Source: Flexilinea sp.
Lineage (GTDB): Bacteria; Chloroflexota; Anaerolineae; Anaerolineales; Anaerolineaceae
Length of the DNA stretch: 64,000 nt
Direction: 5' to 3' (one strand)
NCBI GenBank assembly: GCA_041859835.1
Contig: JBFLFU010000003.1
Shown here: positions 16,818 to 23,272 of the stretch, piece after piece
Layout: each line of letters opens with the position of its first letter
How positions within the stretch are numbered: the first letter of the stretch is position 1
Made by a program: the position numbers and the translations under genes
Notes under the pieces: generated by a model
The model's input: the letters and a program-made list of their open reading frames with translations, nothing else
Database searches by the model: none
Told to the model about the DNA's origin: nothing

Positions 16818-17594
16818 ATGAGACTTCATATGCAACGATGGATCTACAAACTATTGTTTTTTGTCATTCTATGTGCAGTCAGTGGGGGGCATGGCGTCAG
16901 CGCGCAGGCTGCGCTGCCCACCATATTGCCGGATATGCCGAAGCCGGCGGACTCGGCGTTGCTCAGCCAGACGGTGAGCGATATTACGGTAGAAATCACG
17001 CGAATTGGCTATGGGGATCAAGAAATGGCTAATTTCACCGAAAACCCGACAGCCGAACCCCTGCCTTACCGGAATGTTGTGGTTGACGCCTGTTTTACCA
17101 AACCGGACGACGGGGAATGGTTTCTGTATGCGGACCTTACGGACGGCTTTGAATTTGGAGAAACAAATGCTATTTCAATCAATTCGCTTTATGATCACCG
17201 GGTCGAAATCCAGGCCGACGGGAAAAAGATGGGTGAAGATTGTAAACGCTTCTATTATTTGATTCCAGCTGACCAGAAAATCACTTTCCCGCTTATGATC
17301 CGGTTCCGTCATATTTTTACACTTCCGCGTGAGGGAATGGGCACCTGCGAGAATTTTCTCTATCGGGTGAAAACCAGCCCGGCAGCGCAAACCGCCGGGA
17401 TCCAGGCGACGTGTGACGATGTCCAACCGCTAAGCGAATGGACGAGCAGCCAATTCGCTTTCAATCTTGTTTCGTACGATTCCCAAAAGGCAACACAGCA
17501 GGAAGCCAATCAGATCCTGCGGGATATACAAGCGGGTATCGTCTATGGCCCCTGGATTTTCACTATTGAGGGAGAAGATCTGTTTTCAGAATGA
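16818..17594 (+). CDS. Secreted hypothetical protein, 258 aa
   Basis: AAGGAGG RBS; signal peptide ending VSA-QA; several Cys in the mature part; ends GPWIFTI. Confidence 0.7.
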   Translation: MRLHMQRWIYKLLFFVILCAVSGGHGVSAQAALPTILPDMPKPADSALLSQTVSDITVEITRIGYGDQEMANFTENPTAEPLPYRNVVVDACFTKPDDGEWFLYADLTDGFEFGETNAISINSLYDHRVEIQADGKKMGEDCKRFYYLIPADQKITFPLMIRFRHIFTLPREGMGTCENFLYRVKTSPAAQTAGIQATCDDVQPLSEWTSSQFAFNLVSYDSQKATQQEANQILRDIQAGIVYGPWIFTIEGEDLFSE

Positions 17595-17643
17595 AAGGAG
17601 AATTTTGGGAGGAAATTGCTGTCATACGTTTGAAAAACGTATC

Positions 17644-17672
17644 TTGACCGGCTGAGAAAATCCGAATACACT
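17644..17672 (+). promoter_or_regulatory. Sigma70-type promoter of the metNIQ leader
   Basis: TTGACC (17644-49), 17 nt, TACACT (17667-72); predicted TSS about 17679; palindrome ATACGTTT-GAA-AAACGTAT at 17624-17642 just upstream. Confidence 0.65.
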
Positions 17673-17678
17673 ATACTC

Positions 17679-17835
17679 ATGTTGAATTATTCGAGGAACG
17701 GGTACGGAATGTTGATGTGCAGCCGCCAAACAGGGCGGTCGCTGAGCTTTGCGTATCCACAATCGGTATTTATTGGTTAATATTCTCCTGATGATTCGTG
17801 AGGCTCTTTTGTAATAAAAAGAGCCTCTTTTTTTT
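17679..17835 (+). promoter_or_regulatory. Attenuator leader: 33-codon uORF plus alternative helices plus intrinsic terminator
   Basis: uORF 17679-17780 MLNYSRNGYGMLMCSRQTGRSLSFAYPQSVFIG; terminator GAGGCTCTTTT/AAAAGAGCCTC plus T-run; antiterminator 17744-57 pairs with 17793-806. Confidence 0.7.
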
Positions 17836-17893
17836 GATAATAATCAATGCCGATCGAGTTCTTCAAACGAAAAAATCTCCGGAGAAGAATGTA

Positions 17894-18694
17894 GTGATAA
17901 AAATCCAGAATTTGTATAAGGTTTTTAAAACAGAAAGTGGACACTTCAAAGCGTTGGAAGATGTTTCACTTCATGTCGAGGCAGAAGATATTTACGGAAT
18001 CATCGGGATGAGTGGTGCGGGAAAAAGCACATTGGTTCGCTGCATCAACCTGCTGGAAGAACCGACCTACGGGGAGATCGTGATCGAAGGACAGTGCATT
18101 TTTCGGAAAATGAGAAAAAAGGCGGAAGAGGCTGAAGATCCTCAAGAGAATGTCCGCCTGACCGGATCGGATTTATTAGCATTGAGACGGGAAATTGGGA
18201 TGATATTTCAGACGCCAAATTTGTTAATGCAGCGGAACGTGGAGCGCAACATTGCGTTTCCATTGGAAGTTGCCGGCGTGCCGAAAGAAAAAATTCAGAC
18301 GCGGGTCGCTGAGCTGATGGATCTGGTCAGCATCAGCGAAAAAGCCCACAACTATCCCTCCCAGTTATCCGGCGGACAGCGGCAGCGCGTCTCCATTGCG
18401 CGGGCACTGGCGAACACCCCGAAAATTCTGCTCTGTGATGAACCGACCTCGGCTTTGGATTCGTTGACGACGAATCAGATTCTGGATTTGTTATGGGATA
18501 TCAATCAGAAATTGCGCGTCACCATTATTATGATTACGCATGAGATTGAGATCGTGAAAAAGATCTGCAACAAAGTGGCGGTGATCGATCAGACCCGGAT
18601 CGTTGAGCAGGGCGAAATCGGACAGGTTTTGCTGAATCCGGGCAAGGAAATTACCCGGCAGCTGCTGCGGGGAACGCGGGGGAATTATGCCTGA
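17894..18694 (+). CDS. metN: Methionine ABC transporter ATP-binding protein, lacking the C-terminal NIL domain
   Basis: GIIGMSGAGKSTLVRCINLLE, YPSQLSGGQRQRV, LCDEPTSALD; GTG start with GGAG RBS. Confidence 0.88.
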   Translation: MIKIQNLYKVFKTESGHFKALEDVSLHVEAEDIYGIIGMSGAGKSTLVRCINLLEEPTYGEIVIEGQCIFRKMRKKAEEAEDPQENVRLTGSDLLALRREIGMIFQTPNLLMQRNVERNIAFPLEVAGVPKEKIQTRVAELMDLVSISEKAHNYPSQLSGGQRQRVSIARALANTPKILLCDEPTSALDSLTTNQILDLLWDINQKLRVTIIMITHEIEIVKKICNKVAVIDQTRIVEQGEIGQVLLNPGKEITRQLLRGTRGNYA

Positions 18695-19388
18695 GTCATT
18701 ATCGTTTCTTCAAGCGATCGCCGACCTGCTGAGCGAATTCAAAGACTTGCTGGTGTTGGGAACCTGGCAAACGCTGTATGTAACATTTTTGGCGACATCT
18801 ATTGCCTACGTTCTGGGTACGCCGTTAGGAATTTTGGTGGTTGTGACCGCTCCCGGCTCAATCGCTCCTAATCGACCTGTACATGAAGTATTAGGCGGAA
18901 TCATCAATATCGGGCGTTCAATTCCTTTTATTATTCTGTTGGTTGCCCTGATCCCGTTTACAAGGTTGGTTGTTGGAACATCGATCGGACCCAACGCGAC
19001 GATTGTTCCGTTGACGATCGCTGCGACCCCGTTTGTGGCTCGCATGATCGAACAATCGCTGATCGAAGTGGAGAATGGACTGATTGAAATGGCACAATCC
19101 ATGGGCGCTACTTCCCGGCAAATCATTTTTAAAGTCCTGTTGCCGGAAAGTCTGCCTTCAATCATTCGTGGAATTTCGATCACGATTATCAGCCTGGTTG
19201 GGTATTATGCGATGGCTGGTGCAGTCGGCGGCGGCGGTTTGGGGGACCTGGCGATCCGCTATGGTTACTACCGTTATAAGTCCGACGTCATGTTTGTCAC
19301 CATTGTTTTGTTGGTCATCATCGTGGAAGTTATTCAACTTCTCGGGAATGGCGCCGCAAAGCGAATGGATAAGCGGAATATCCGCTGA
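18687..19388 (+). CDS. metI: Methionine ABC permease
   Basis: INIGRSIPFIILLVALIPFTR, AGAVGGGGLGDLAIRYGYYR. Confidence 0.93.
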   Translation: MPESLSFLQAIADLLSEFKDLLVLGTWQTLYVTFLATSIAYVLGTPLGILVVVTAPGSIAPNRPVHEVLGGIINIGRSIPFIILLVALIPFTRLVVGTSIGPNATIVPLTIAATPFVARMIEQSLIEVENGLIEMAQSMGATSRQIIFKVLLPESLPSIIRGISITIISLVGYYAMAGAVGGGGLGDLAIRYGYYRYKSDVMFVTIVLLVIIVEVIQLLGNGAAKRMDKRNIR

Positions 19389-19489
19389 TTGGATTGTTTG
19401 TTTTCTCTGTTGACGCTTCAGAGTTATCAGGAGACAGGACCGGTACTGTCCCTGAACAAAATGAAATTTTACAAATAATGAGGAATATC

Positions 19490-20347
19490 ATGAAAAAAAC
19501 TGCTGTTATTACCTTTGTCTTATTGCTCTCTGCAATCGTTCTGTCCGGTTTTGCTCCTTCTGCACAAACCGAAACCACCGTCGAATTTTCGAAGGAAAAT
19601 CCGATCACATTGAAAATTGGTGTGTCCCCGGTTCCGCATGCTGAAATTGTTGCGGTTGTGAAAGACGCGCTGGCTGAACAGGGCATCAACTTGGAAATCA
19701 TCGAATTTACCGATTATGTTCTGCCGAACACCGCTTTGGAAGATGGCAGCCTGGACGCCAACTTCTTCCAGCATCAGCCCTATCTGGATGACTTCAATAA
19801 GACTCGTCTGGCCGAGAACTCTAACTGGACTGAACTGGTTCCGTTGGTCTTCATCCACTTTGAACCGCTTGCGGTCTATGGCGGCAAAACTGCCAGCCTG
19901 GACGAATTGCCTGACGGTGCGAAAATCGCTGTGCCGAACGACACCACGAATGAAGCCCGTGCGCTCCTTCTGCTGGAAGCCAACGGTCTGATCAAACTCG
20001 CCGAGGGCAAAGGTCTTGAAGCGACTGCGAAAGATATTGTTGAAAATCCGAAGAACCTTGAAATCGTCGAACTCGAAGCCGCTCAGGTCGCCCGCGCGCT
20101 GGCCGACGTCGATTTTGCTGTGATCAATGGCAACTATGCTCTGGAAGCCGGTCTGACTGCTGACGACATTTTGGCGCAGGAAGCTCCGGATTCCGAAGCT
20201 GCCGTGAAATATGCCAACCTGGTTGCCGTCCGCAAAGGCGATGAAGAACTTCCCCAGTTTGTCGCGTTGGCTGACGCGCTGAAAACCGATGAAGTCAAAA
20301 CTTTCATTGAAGAAACCTATCAGGGTTCTGTCGTTCCTGTTTTCTAA
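19490..20347 (+). CDS. metQ: MetQ/NlpA family methionine-binding protein
   Basis: GVSPVPHAEI, EFTDYVLPN, DANFFQHQPYL, AVPNDTTNEARALLLL, AVINGNYA. Confidence 0.92.
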   Translation: MKKTAVITFVLLLSAIVLSGFAPSAQTETTVEFSKENPITLKIGVSPVPHAEIVAVVKDALAEQGINLEIIEFTDYVLPNTALEDGSLDANFFQHQPYLDDFNKTRLAENSNWTELVPLVFIHFEPLAVYGGKTASLDELPDGAKIAVPNDTTNEARALLLLEANGLIKLAEGKGLEATAKDIVENPKNLEIVELEAAQVARALADVDFAVINGNYALEAGLTADDILAQEAPDSEAAVKYANLVAVRKGDEELPQFVALADALKTDEVKTFIEETYQGSVVPVF

Positions 20348-20513: not shown

Positions 20514-21332
20514 TTATGCTGCTTTTTTGCCGATCAGCAAGCCATGGTTACTGATGCCCAGAATTGACGGTTCTTCGCAGGTACGGATATGAAAATCGGC
20601 CCAGCGCTTGAAGTCATCGACGCGCATGGCGTTGATTTCTTCGGCCAGCAGCCTGCCGACGCCGTCCTGCGAGATGTGATGGAGGATCGTGAGATGCCGT
20701 TCCCGGGCGATCCGCTCAATCTCACCGGGCGTGGTGAACCAGGTGTCGGTCCAGAAGCAATCTTCGTCCGTTGAGCGCATGACGCCTTCTTCGATGATCT
20801 TTCGGAACCATTTCTCCTGCAGAAACTGTTTGTTTTGAGAGGCCAGATGGGCGAAAACAAAATGCTTATTCATATAGGCCAGGTAGAGCAGGCCTCCGGG
20901 TTTCAAGACGCGGCAGCATTCGGCCATCACCTTTTCCCGGTCTTCGGCCTCGGTCAGATGGTAGATCGGTCCCATGCAGAAGACATGGTCGAAGGTGTTG
21001 TCTGCAAAGGCGGAAAGATCCCGTGCGTCGTTCACGCCGGAGGTTATTTTGACGCCGTCAGCCAGCGCTTTCTGGTTGAGGATTTCGATATAGGATGGCG
21101 TGATATCCAATGCGGTGACGTTTAGTCCGCGAGCGGCGAAATGCAGCGCATAGGCGCCGGTCCCCGCCGCGACATCAAGGATACTTTCGCCTGTTTTCAG
21201 GTATTTGTTCATATAGACCAGCGCTGTCATGAATTCGAGCCGGCGGACGTTGTCCGCTGACAACCGCAGGTCTTCATCATAATTTTCGTAAGATTGAACC
21301 ACCGGGTTCATCTCAGCAATTGTTTTTTCCAT
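20514..21332 (-). CDS. Class I SAM-dependent methyltransferase
   Basis: ILDVAAGTGAY, VTALD, FDHVFCMGPIYHL, VLKPGG; GGGAG RBS before ATG at 21332. Confidence 0.88.
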   Translation of the reverse strand: MEKTIAEMNPVVQSYENYDEDLRLSADNVRRLEFMTALVYMNKYLKTGESILDVAAGTGAYALHFAARGLNVTALDITPSYIEILNQKALADGVKITSGVNDARDLSAFADNTFDHVFCMGPIYHLTEAEDREKVMAECCRVLKPGGLLYLAYMNKHFVFAHLASQNKQFLQEKWFRKIIEEGVMRSTDEDCFWTDTWFTTPGEIERIARERHLTILHHISQDGVGRLLAEEINAMRVDDFKRWADFHIRTCEEPSILGISNHGLLIGKKAA

Positions 21333-21616: not shown

Positions 21617-23272
21617 ATGAAACGGAACCTTCTGGCATTTCTCACACGGTATGGCGTGATTCTCTTTTTTGTGCTGTATGCGCTGATCGGACTGATCAGC
21701 TTTGCTGATTACGGCTGCGGACCGGACGAGGGCATGGAACGGCAGACCTCGCTGGTCAATTTCAAATATGTCATTGAGAAACTCTCGTTGCCGGTCCCGG
21801 AGGCGACGACGCGCTGGCTGGCTTATCTGCCGGACCTGACGGAATACCGCGACCGTTACTACGGTACCGCGCTCCATTTCCCGTTGGTGCTGATTGAGGC
21901 TTTCGCCAACTTCCAGTTTGAACCGGCAGTGTTTTATGGAATGCGCCATTTATTTACTTTCCTGAATTTTTACCTTGGTGTGATCTGCTTTTATCTGTTG
22001 TTGAAAAAACGTTTGGGTAACCGTGGCTGGGCGTTGCTCGGTGCGGCCATGTTGGTGCTCTCGCCGCGTTTTTTTGCGGAGAGTTTTTACAATAACAAGG
22101 ACGTGCTTTTTCTTTCCTGGTATTTGATCAGCTGCTGGCTGCTGGTGCGTTGGTTTGAGAATAAGACCTGGAAGAATGCAGCATTGGCCGGCGTCGCGCT
22201 GGCGTTGACCTGCAACACGCGCCTGAACGGGATCATTTTCTTTCCATTGGCGGCCGGATTTTTCCTGATCGATTTTCTGCGCGGCCGCAGCCGGTCAAAA
22301 CGGGATTTTCTTTCCCTGGCGGTTCTTCTCCTGACGGCAGTGGCGGTTTTTTATCTGATAACGCCGAATTTCTGGGAAGCTCCGCTGCGGACGGCGCTGG
22401 AGACCTTTGCCTTCAATCGTGCTCATCCAAACCATGGCTCGGACGGCAATCTTTTCCTGGGGAGACTGGTGGATTCGACGCAGATGTGGTATTTTGTCCC
22501 ACTATGGATCCTGCTGACCACGCCTGTTCTTTACCTGGTTCTGAGCGGGATCGGATTGACCGCGTCGGCGATGCGCGGGCTGCATTCGTTGCGTTCGCTG
22601 CGGGGACGGATTTTGATGAATACCGGGCGACTGGATAATGCCGGTTTGATGGATCTGTTTCTGTTCTGCGTCGGTTTTTTGCCGCCTTTGATTATTATCG
22701 GGATGCGTGTAACCATCTATAATGGCTGGCGGCATTGCTATTTCGCTTATGGTACGATCCTCTATTTTGCCGTTCTGGGCGGCGACGCTATCTTCCGGCT
22801 TAAGATCCCCAACCGTTTCTGGCGTTCCGTCCGTACGGTCGGGCTTGCCGGTGCGATTGGACTGAGTTTCGCCGTGACGCTGGCTTGGATGATCGCCAAT
22901 CACCCCTATCAATATGTCTATTTTAATGCCTTCGTGCGCGAATATGCGGGGCATTTTTCCGGGGATTATTGGGGGATTGCTTCACGTGATTTATTGCGGT
23001 TTGTCGTGGAGACGGATGAACGGCCGTTGATTGTGATCGATCATTCTTATACGCAGACCGGCAGTATCAATCGCGGGTTGCTGGACGCGGTTGATCGAGA
23101 CCGCATTGATCTGGTTTATGATCCGGATGCGGCTGATTATATTCTGTATGGCAGGGATGATAAGCCGGGCGGTGCGGTGGAATTCGCGGGGTTTGAGCCG
23201 GTTTTCTCAATCCGGGTGGACGCGGACGAGATCGGCATCGTGTTCCGGCGCTTGGATCAGCGCCCGCAATGA
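21617..23272 (+). CDS. GT-C fold membrane glycosyltransferase (ArnT/PMT-like)
   Basis: About 12 TM segments; acidic pair in loop 1 (CGPDE); SPRFFAESFYNNKDV; IYNGWRH; GDYWG. Confidence 0.7.
   Translation: MKRNLLAFLTRYGVILFFVLYALIGLISFADYGCGPDEGMERQTSLVNFKYVIEKLSLPVPEATTRWLAYLPDLTEYRDRYYGTALHFPLVLIEAFANFQFEPAVFYGMRHLFTFLNFYLGVICFYLLLKKRLGNRGWALLGAAMLVLSPRFFAESFYNNKDVLFLSWYLISCWLLVRWFENKTWKNAALAGVALALTCNTRLNGIIFFPLAAGFFLIDFLRGRSRSKRDFLSLAVLLLTAVAVFYLITPNFWEAPLRTALETFAFNRAHPNHGSDGNLFLGRLVDSTQMWYFVPLWILLTTPVLYLVLSGIGLTASAMRGLHSLRSLRGRILMNTGRLDNAGLMDLFLFCVGFLPPLIIIGMRVTIYNGWRHCYFAYGTILYFAVLGGDAIFRLKIPNRFWRSVRTVGLAGAIGLSFAVTLAWMIANHPYQYVYFNAFVREYAGHFSGDYWGIASRDLLRFVVETDERPLIVIDHSYTQTGSINRGLLDAVDRDRIDLVYDPDAADYILYGRDDKPGGAVEFAGFEPVFSIRVDADEIGIVFRRLDQRPQ

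Follow-up and report, generated by a model that had tools for sequence, protein, structure and literature searches.

What controls the methionine transporter operon metNIQ in bacteria of the Flexilinea type? The question is raised by a 64,000-nt stretch of DNA from Flexilinea sp. (Chloroflexota, Anaerolineae; contig JBFLFU010000003.1 of assembly GCA_041859835.1), hereafter the window, in which metNIQ is preceded by a promoter, a short upstream open reading frame (uORF) with clustered Met codons and an intrinsic terminator. Methionine genes are typically under the control of S-adenosylmethionine (SAM) riboswitches, T-boxes or proteins such as MetJ and MetR. Ribosome-mediated attenuation is established for Trp, His, Phe, Leu, Thr and Ile/Val, and recently also for Cys, in the latter case at the translational level. 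To our knowledge, no validated Met attenuator exists, and almost no cis-regulatory RNAs have been characterised in Chloroflexota. Comparison with the leaders of related metN genes suggested that the leader in the window is probably a ribosome-mediated transcription attenuator of the trp type, which senses methionine via the charging of elongator tRNA-Met. The observations behind this proposal are the sequence elements themselves, which are conserved and covary, a reading frame that has been maintained and is enriched in Met codons, and a switch between folds in silico.

A conserved Met-codon reading frame at the predicted 5′ end of the transcript

The nearest relatives of the window MetN come from Flexilinea (Anaerolineae, Chloroflexota), with 83% and 81% identity, followed by a group at 70%. 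Leaders of related metN genes, designated by L numbers, were collected from species-representative genomes (L001–L005), from exact-protein look-ups via MetN homologues with 66–84% identity (L081–L085, L122, L124, L125 and L127–L130) and by a DNA-pattern scan of metagenomes. The same leader was found 5′ of metN in 12 diverged lineages, all of them Flexilinea-like Anaerolineae whose MetN is 66–84% identical to that of the window. One of these leaders, at positions 2784–2939 of L002, belongs to Flexilinea flocculi TC1, a relative in culture. The metagenome scan returned 36 matches, seven of which were real, all located 5′ of metN and adding one new lineage (L116); no genomic context other than metN was revealed. 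The other 29 matches were rejected as chance occurrences inside GC-rich coding DNA.

The promoter of the metNIQ leader is one of only three promoter-like sites within positions 17300–18200 of the window, and it would place the transcription start site, by its own position alone, at or adjacent to A17679, the first nucleotide of the uORF (Table 1). A distance of 6–7 nt between the −10 hexamer and the ATG was observed in 16/16 homologous leaders, the hexamer itself occurring as TAAACT, TATAAA, TACACT, TAGAAT or CATAAT, and no Shine-Dalgarno (SD) sequence is present ahead of the ATG in any of the 16. The nucleotides separating the −10 hexamer from the ATG vary freely among lineages, as do the codons 3′ of the ATG. 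With both of its flanks unconserved, the ATG of the uORF thus stands as an island of conservation.

The uORF of the window ends with a TAA stop codon at 17778–80 and carries the tract ATG-TTG-ATG-TGC at 17709–20. The pattern AUG-NNG-AUG is present in all homologues, with UUG, AUG or GCG as the middle codon, and the ATG of the uORF is in frame with it in every leader. The segment between the ATG and the tract has a length of 27, 30 or 36 nt, varying by multiples of three only. This variable N-terminal part contains no frame-0 stop codon in 11 lineages, corresponding to a joint shuffle probability of ~10^-3.2 when the 11 lineages, with individual shuffle probabilities of 0.43–0.67, are treated as independent; frames +1 and +2 of the same part are interrupted by stops in most lineages. 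Internal Met codons account for 35/291 codons (12.0%) in the uORFs, compared to 2.4% in the 42 long open reading frames (ORFs) of the window (binomial P = 1e-14). Met is encoded by a single codon, and selection for Met codons would therefore explain the invariance of the two outer AUG triplets at the nucleotide level. The preliminary description of this locus, made from the window sequence, had called for an alignment of orthologous leaders; the alignment bears out the conservation of the Met codons and the covariation of the helices (see below), but not that of the Cys codon, as the codon 3′ of the tract changes with the lineage between UGC, CGC and GCC.

The peptide portion C-terminal to the tract is unconserved. 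L125 has lost 1 nt from the hairpin loop, and the resulting frameshift leaves a 20-codon uORF that ends with UGA at the start of segment 2 and retains the Met tract. Both features argue that it is the codons that count, and not the peptide. The close pairs L001/L002 and L003/L004 show substitutions without synonymous-site bias, as judged by eye. An argument of the dN/dS type (non-synonymous to synonymous substitution ratio) for the uORF was consequently discarded, given that the close pairs lack synonymous bias and that the N-terminus shows no amino-acid selection. Judging from these alignments, the conserved property is an open frame carrying Met codons, rather than a protein.

Mutually exclusive helices with compensatory changes

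Three helices can form downstream of the uORF start (Table 1). Helix 1:2 joins positions 17700–06 to CGUAUCC at 17752–58 with 7/7 pairs, and the antiterminator 2:3 is mutually exclusive with both hairpin 1:2 and the terminator 3:4. Together with the promoter, the 33-codon uORF and its ATG-TTG-ATG-TGC tract, helices 1:2 and 2:3 and the terminator had been proposed in the preliminary description, and all of them were located at the positions given there; its proposal that the three helices exclude one another is reinforced by the homologues, in which the alternative folds are kept with compensatory changes.

In an alignment of 15 leader sequences (A2), the terminated state, comprising outer helix 1:2, the inner hairpin and the terminator, had 91.3% of cells paired, compared to 44–57% with slid partners, and eight pairs were changed on both sides, as evidenced in GGGUACG/CGUAUCC, GGUAACG/CGUUACC and GAAAACG/CGUUUUC. 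The antiterminator was 86% paired versus 41–49% with slid partners and had five pairs changed on both sides in the same alignment, for example UUGCG/CGUGA versus UUCAUG/CAUGAG. Segment 3 across the homologues had 81% of cells paired, with five pairs changed on both sides. The clade of L083–L085 carries GCUUCAUGU as segment 2 and GCAUGAGGC as segment 3, the window counterparts being GCUUUGCG and CGUGAGGC. The terminator is kept in all homologues (96.7% paired), again with five pairs changed on both sides.

The 166-nt leader has a minimum free energy (MFE) of −57.2 kcal/mol (z = −5.0), a value equalled by 0/200 dinucleotide shuffles. The calculated energies of the individual elements are −27.2 kcal/mol for hairpin 1:2 (17700–17758, including the inner hairpin) and −16.6 kcal/mol each for 2:3 and the terminator 3:4. 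Hairpin 1:2 is thus ~10 kcal/mol more stable than 2:3, suggesting that termination is the default state, which in these calculations would suit an attenuator more than an OFF riboswitch whose aptamer is without ligand.

A further pairing emerged from the RNAalifold consensus, in which the Met tract AUG.UGA.UG pairs with GC.UUN.CGU of segment 2 in 15/15 sequences, with one-sided changes only; it joins A2 columns 37–46 to columns 74–82, equivalent to window positions 17709–17718 and 17746–17754. The MFE structures of the L083–L085 clade adopt a shifted 1:2 register resembling this pairing. Segment 1 adjoins or contains the Met codons in either register. If real, the RNAalifold register would make the regulatory codons themselves the anti-antiterminator strand.

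Dependence of metN on read-through

The U-run of the terminator lies 58 nt from the metN start in the window. In L003, L004, L005 and L127, it is followed within ~12 nt by an SD sequence (GAGG) and the metN ATG. A gap of ~12 nt fits no second promoter, so metN in these loci must be transcribed through the terminator. As metN needs read-through, the terminator serves for attenuation and does not mark where a separate gene ends.

The MetN protein of the window is without the C-terminal NIL/C2 domain, and its Flexilinea-type homologues are equally short (254–289 aa). In E. coli MetN, the NIL/C2 domain mediates inhibition by intracellular methionine. The loss of this feedback could raise the importance of transcriptional control of metNIQ.

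Proposed mechanism and modelled switch

We infer that the uORF is translated, that ribosomes stall within it and that the outcome responds to methionine. Transcription would begin at the A of the ATG at 17679, or next to it, giving a leaderless mRNA, and a ribosome would translate the 33-codon uORF once the 5′ end has emerged. With no ribosome on the Met tract, hairpin 1:2 would sequester segment 2, the terminator 3:4 would form and transcription would end ahead of metN, at the U8 run. Under a shortage of Met-tRNA(Met), the ribosome would stall at 17709–17717, its footprint extending over segment 1 as well as the inner hairpin's 5′ strand, and the freed segment 2 would pair with newly transcribed segment 3, blocking the terminator and allowing RNA polymerase to enter metNIQ. 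When Met is ample, a ribosome at the stop codon is expected to cover segment 2 in most homologues, leading to termination. In the window, the ribosome at the stop codon would stand just before segment 3, and 1:2 would re-form behind it, with the same outcome.

To mimic a stalled ribosome, ~36 nt were masked, beginning 15 nt 5′ of the first Met codon and ending 12 nt beyond the third, and co-transcriptional folding was modelled on transcripts truncated at the terminator loop. The MFE structure of the masked, truncated transcript includes helix 2:3 in 15/15 leaders, and the unmasked one forms hairpin 1:2 in 14/15. The release of 2:3 by a stalled ribosome, as put forward in the preliminary description, is therefore reproduced in silico. 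Its companion claim, that a ribosome reaching the stop codon masks segment 2, holds for most homologues and fails for the window itself. The uORF stop lies −14 to +9 nt from the 3′ end of segment 2 in 12/15 leaders, where a terminating ribosome would thus cover the segment. It is 18–21 nt past segment 2 and 13–16 nt ahead of segment 3 in the window, L001 and L122; in the window, the stop lies 21 nt 3′ of the end of segment 2, and segment 3 begins 13 nt later.

Table 1 Features of the metNIQ leader and operon in the window, and N-terminal parts of leader peptides from related loci
Feature	Position	Strand	Basis and remarks
−35 hexamer TTGACC	17644..17649	+	Promoter scan; TTGAC(C/T) kept in most homologues
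−10 hexamer TACACT	17667..17672	+	Promoter scan; 17-nt spacer to −35; 6 nt between its end and the uORF ATG
Putative leaderless uORF, 33 codons, 'metL-like' leader peptide MLNYSRNGYGMLMCSRQTGRSLSFAYPQSVFIG-stop	17679..17780	+	ORF list; kept in 12 lineages; no upstream SD
Candidate regulatory Met codon tract AUG-UUG-AUG	17709..17717	+	Invariant A/T/G columns in alignments A2 and A4
Segment 1, GGGUACG, 5′ strand of anti-antiterminator hairpin 1:2	17700..17706	+	85.7% of cells paired; 3/7 pairs changed on both sides
Inner GC-rich hairpin GCCGCC-N6-GGCGGU within 1:2	17722..17739	+	5/6 pairs invariant among 15 sequences
Segment 2, GAGCUUUGCGUAUC	17744..17757	+	3′ half pairs with segment 1; whole pairs with segment 3 (antiterminator)
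Segment 3, GAUUCGUGAGGCUC, 3′ strand of antiterminator, overlapping 5′ strand of terminator	17793..17806	+	13/14 pairs with 17744–57
Intrinsic terminator, 11-bp stem, 6-nt loop, U8	17800..17835	+	Terminator scan; stem 17800–27
metN, GTG start, SD GGAG upstream, ATP-binding cassette (ABC) ATPase of 266 aa	17894..18694	+	NCBIfam TIGR02314 MetN best match, 1.9e-90, profile positions 1–244/343
metI, permease	18687..19388	+	NCBIfam NF008049 MetI, 243.5 bits versus cut-off of 212
metQ, substrate-binding lipoprotein, start 19478 or 19490	19478..20347	+	NCBIfam MetQ/NlpA family, 1.4e-55
Leader peptide, L001			MKNLLMMGYGMLMC…
Leader peptide, L081			MIKMIYFGYGMLMAGR…
Leader peptide, L082			MQTEERIINEYGMAMCSRRMWR…
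Leader peptide, L003			MFTKTFGNGMMMRDRRMGR…
Leader peptide, L124			MNQYYFENVMMMRGRRMGR…
Leader peptide, L084			MKTIERNGEGMLMRFR…FMF
Leader peptide, L130			MLNVKTLEYGMMMAGRRMGR…

Search for known RNA classes

No Rfam family was matched at the gathering score anywhere in the 64-kb window, not even a tRNA, and a permissive search of 17550–17950 gave noise only, with no SAM or T-box family among it, in agreement with the earlier impression that the leader lacks a SAM-I or T-box consensus. Nor did any Rfam family match in 17 related loci. Likewise, none of the SAM families (SAM-I/IV, SAM-II/V, SAM-III, SAM-VI and SAM-SAH, the last named for S-adenosylhomocysteine, SAH) was found at the gathering score in the window and 17 related loci, and no SAM family matched even at E ≤ 10 or E ≤ 1. 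The T-box model RF00230 gave no match at E ≤ 10. As a positive control, the same Rfam search identified eight T-boxes and two SAM-I aptamers 5′ of distant metN homologues, in loci of Lactobacillus, Erysipelotrichaceae and other Bacillota, with SAM-I scores of 88–90 bits in L022 and L029. Because these elements were detected in the control loci, the negative result at the Flexilinea-type loci is meaningful.

Weighing of the attenuation model against other explanations

Several points weigh against attenuation at Met codons. Methionine starvation should also cut the supply of fMet-tRNA and thereby initiation at the uORF, pushing the leader toward the untranslated, terminating state. The clustered regulatory Met codons number only two to three, and the lineages have common ancestry, so that the statistical tests given above exaggerate their independence. 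The MFE structure of the masked full-length leader retains the terminator in most sequences; with full-length thermodynamics keeping the terminator, the decision of the switch must be kinetic and co-transcriptional, as in trp. Leaderless genes have been estimated to be scarce in Chloroflexi, at ~4.7% of genes, in 4/12 genomes (PMC3160421), and no further site in the 64-kb window combines a promoter with an ATG in the leaderless arrangement. As the metNIQ leader is the sole leaderless-type promoter there, the window does not independently support the idea that leaderless translation is common in its genome. In addition, the codon ahead of the tract is GGA in all lineages but one (GUU in L124), exceeding coding need, and the inner stem CCGCC/GGCGG is also more conserved than coding needs and shows no covariation, its invariant pairs being uninformative in this respect. 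The inner stem and the GGA codon may have an extra function at the RNA level.

This conservation is also what a new riboswitch for SAM, SAH or Met would account for, with an aptamer at 17700–17758, an internal-loop pocket formed by GAAUGUUGAUGUGC and GAGCUUU, and a ligand stabilising 1:2 to cause termination, the uORF being incidental. Conservation is indeed strong in the loop nucleotides and in the inner stem, the logic of aptamer, antiterminator and terminator equals that of OFF riboswitches, and the absence of any matching class means that such an element would be a new one. However, a riboswitch leaves unexplained the ATG 6–7 nt past the −10 hexamer, the frame maintained over N-terminal parts of 27, 30 and 36 nt and the absence of stops. 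The 3′ side of its pocket varies (GAGCUUU, AUGCUUC, CCGCUUC and UCGCUUC), showing covariation with the terminator strand instead, all three bases of the middle tract codon can change (UUG, AUG, GCG), and the 1:2 register is shifted in the L083–L085 clade. Moreover, hairpin 1:2 already beats the antiterminator by ~10 kcal/mol without ligand, and the close relative L123 (see below) has substituted a Met/Cys-rich, SD-led uORF for the leader. A riboswitch is therefore unlikely. The conserved ATG position and frame, the five-fold Met enrichment and the maintenance of both folds favour a leader peptide over it, the same preference as in the preliminary description. A dual sensor would combine the two ideas, stalling at the Met codons being joined either by binding of SAM or Met to the conserved hairpin (GGA-AUG-NNG-AUG loop with the CCGCC/GGCGG stem) or by metabolite sensing through a nascent G-x-G-M-x-M peptide. 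We consider this distinctly improbable; if true, translation state and metabolite would be integrated on one RNA of ~150 nt.

Could the leader respond to translation but not to Met in particular? Such an attenuator would monitor the overall capacity for translation or an amino acid other than Met, for example Cys, with the Met codons incidental. UGC is the next codon after the tract in several lineages besides the window, Cys as well as Met codons abound in the L123 leader, and transporters of the MetNIQ type are part of sulfur amino-acid metabolism. We regard this as quite unlikely, given that other lineages have CGC or GCC at this position, leaving Cys unconserved, whereas AUG-NNG-AUG is invariant, additional Met codons recur to a total of 12% Met, and the controlled operon is a Met transporter. 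Antitermination by a tRNA, through a T-box-like element with an AUG specifier, or by a protein recognising the UG-rich tract appears very unlikely. AUG triplets do lie in an internal loop of the hairpin 5′ of a terminator/antiterminator pair, and T-boxes control met transporters in Lactobacillus and relatives, but the T-box model that found eight T-boxes in the controls has no match here at E ≤ 10, the ~150-nt leader is without a Stem I platform or T-box sequence, a TRAP-like protein would have only three triplets available, and neither the +1 position of the ATG nor the conservation of the frame would be explained. The least probable explanation is a small-protein gene in its own right that ends at the terminator, metNIQ being transcribed from a separate downstream promoter. 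The 58 nt available in the window and the conserved G-x-G-M-x-M peptide motif would allow it; the ~12 nt, SD included, of L003, L004, L005 and L127 exclude a promoter, L125 reads the C-terminal half of the peptide in another frame, and an antiterminator co-varying with the terminator would be pointless at a plain gene end.

Comparison with known leader peptides and RNA sensors

Attenuation at Met codons would share its design with the E. coli leaders trpL, hisL, pheL, thrL, leuL and ilvL, in which a short ORF with cognate codons precedes helices 1:2, 2:3 and 3:4, the stall site frees segment 2 and the untranslated default is termination. Unlike these, the Flexilinea-type element concerns Met, has no SD sequence, apparently starts at the 5′ end, controls a transporter operon and occurs in Chloroflexota. 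The SAM-I and Met T-box leaders of Bacillota serve the same genes with the same terminator/antiterminator output, but they sense SAM or uncharged tRNA directly by RNA, whereas the sensor of the Flexilinea type would be the uORF.

A precedent for Met was missed by the preliminary description, which knew of no classical Met leader peptide. In Streptomyces lividans TK24, a leaderless 'metL' of 29 aa (…ARCMCRRMCAF) has been predicted 5′ of metNIQ, with no Rho-independent terminator found (PMC8079986). Similar to the present case, it is a leaderless uORF directly 5′ of metNIQ with clustered Met (and Cys) codons, and its authors proposed Met-dependence. The Flexilinea-type element differs in having a complete, co-varying terminator/antiterminator and in belonging to a different phylum, both elements being predictions. 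BLASTP gave no alignment of S. lividans MetL with the uORF peptide at E ≤ 100. The S. lividans prediction was the only one found in the literature when an established Met leader peptide was looked for. A survey of Actinobacteria reported no methionine leader-peptide attenuator (PMC1262725), and a broad attenuator survey mentions no methionine leader peptide, only a T-box 5′ of a methionine transporter (PMC2965389).

Leaderless leader peptides as such have been predicted in Deinococcus deserti, with 14 cases (PMC4007540), and leaderless poly-Cys small ORFs (sORFs) of mycobacteria are validated Cys sensors that act on the accessibility of the ribosome-binding site (RBS) (Canestrari et al., bioRxiv 10.1101/834739). 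The mycobacterial sORFs resemble the Flexilinea-type leader as leaderless amino-acid sensors that work via stalling 5′ of sulfur amino-acid genes. They contain consecutive Cys codons, however, and their stalled ribosome opens an RBS-sequestering structure, amounting to translational control; the Flexilinea-type element has Met codons with a lone, unconserved Cys codon, and an intrinsic terminator with a U-run before the metN SD.

The category is thus already known, and what appears to be newly seen, judged by sequence comparison, is a Met-specific, leaderless switch with a co-varying intrinsic terminator in Chloroflexota. Covariation and a maintained ORF across ~12 lineages provide the first comparative support for a complete Met-codon transcription attenuator, making this leader a well-supported candidate for the methionine member missing from the attenuator repertoire. 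It would read the charging of Met-tRNA and not SAM, and its leaderlessness would couple transcription initiation to the pioneer ribosome from the first nucleotide. The element is not in Rfam, and its uORF could be annotated wrongly as a hypothetical protein or omitted.

A second, unrelated leader and the limits of the distribution

The MetN encoded at L123 is 90% identical to that of L127, which bears the standard leader. At positions 190–400 of L123 lies an unrelated leader, consisting of a TTGACA-17-TATCAT promoter, a 5′ untranslated region with the SD sequence AGGAGGAG, a uORF (GTG…MTNSCAMRMNMMCACVGSCYLCCVA-stop) with four internal Met and six Cys codons, and the strong terminator AAGCCCGCCTCGCAATAGTGCGAGACGGGCTTTTTGTTT. 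In modelled folds, an antiterminator forms between the 3′ end of the L123 uORF and the 5′ terminator strand, unless a ribosome gets to the stop codon. The L123 leader had no Rfam match. It is known from one contig and looks like an independently evolved Met/Cys leader-peptide attenuator, with the same design principle in an unrelated sequence. Together, the Streptomyces metL prediction, the L123 uORF and the Flexilinea-type leader suggest a repeated origin of Met/Cys-rich leader peptides at metNIQ.

A covariance model of the core of the Flexilinea-type leader (R1) had one match in the window and one in each of 18 related loci scanned, and none in 75 more distant metN loci, L123 or L126. No such leader was seen outside the Flexilinea-like clade among the 75 distant metN homologues scanned. 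Met-rich ORFs within 450 nt 5′ of these 75 homologues were set aside: they lie mostly several hundred nt from metN, with no evident terminator in the 70 nt downstream of them. In L126, which belongs to the next MetN tier (63% identity) and has Anaerovoracaceae-like neighbours, a TTGACT-17-TAAAAT promoter and a short leader occupy positions 1040–1215, with no obvious terminator, Rfam match or Met-rich uORF. On this evidence, the attenuator ends at the boundary of the Flexilinea-like clade. The leader element is, as far as the data reach, restricted to this clade and specific to metNIQ.

Upstream motifs and neighbouring genes

The motif TGTCA[CT], usually TTGTCA, is fixed at −57 to −60 from the uORF ATG in 11/16 leaders, namely those of the window (TGTCAT at 17620–17625), L001, L002, L081, L082, L083, L084, L085, L116, L122 and L130. 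Its carriers include clades with a differing −35 region, and L004 shows a GTCAT variant. The motif may represent a site for an activator or one of the UP type, which would supplement attenuation with control of transcription. Immediately 5′ of the −35 hexamer, positions 17624–17642 of the window form a perfect inverted repeat, ATACGTTT-GAA-AAACGTAT, which was not seen in the upstream sequences of other lineages. It may serve as an operator or mark the transcript end of the upstream gene, although a T-run is lacking.

A class I SAM-dependent methyltransferase of the UbiE/Methyltransf_11-25 type is a recurrent neighbour of metNIQ, located at 20514–21332 on the minus strand in the window, at 172–981 in L124 and at 1980–2786 in L127. 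In the window, it lies downstream of metNIQ in convergent orientation; in the clade of L003, L124 and L127, it shares the strand of metNIQ and lies directly upstream. A PMT_2 glycosyltransferase is encoded near metNIQ in the same clade, and likewise at 21617–23272 in the window.

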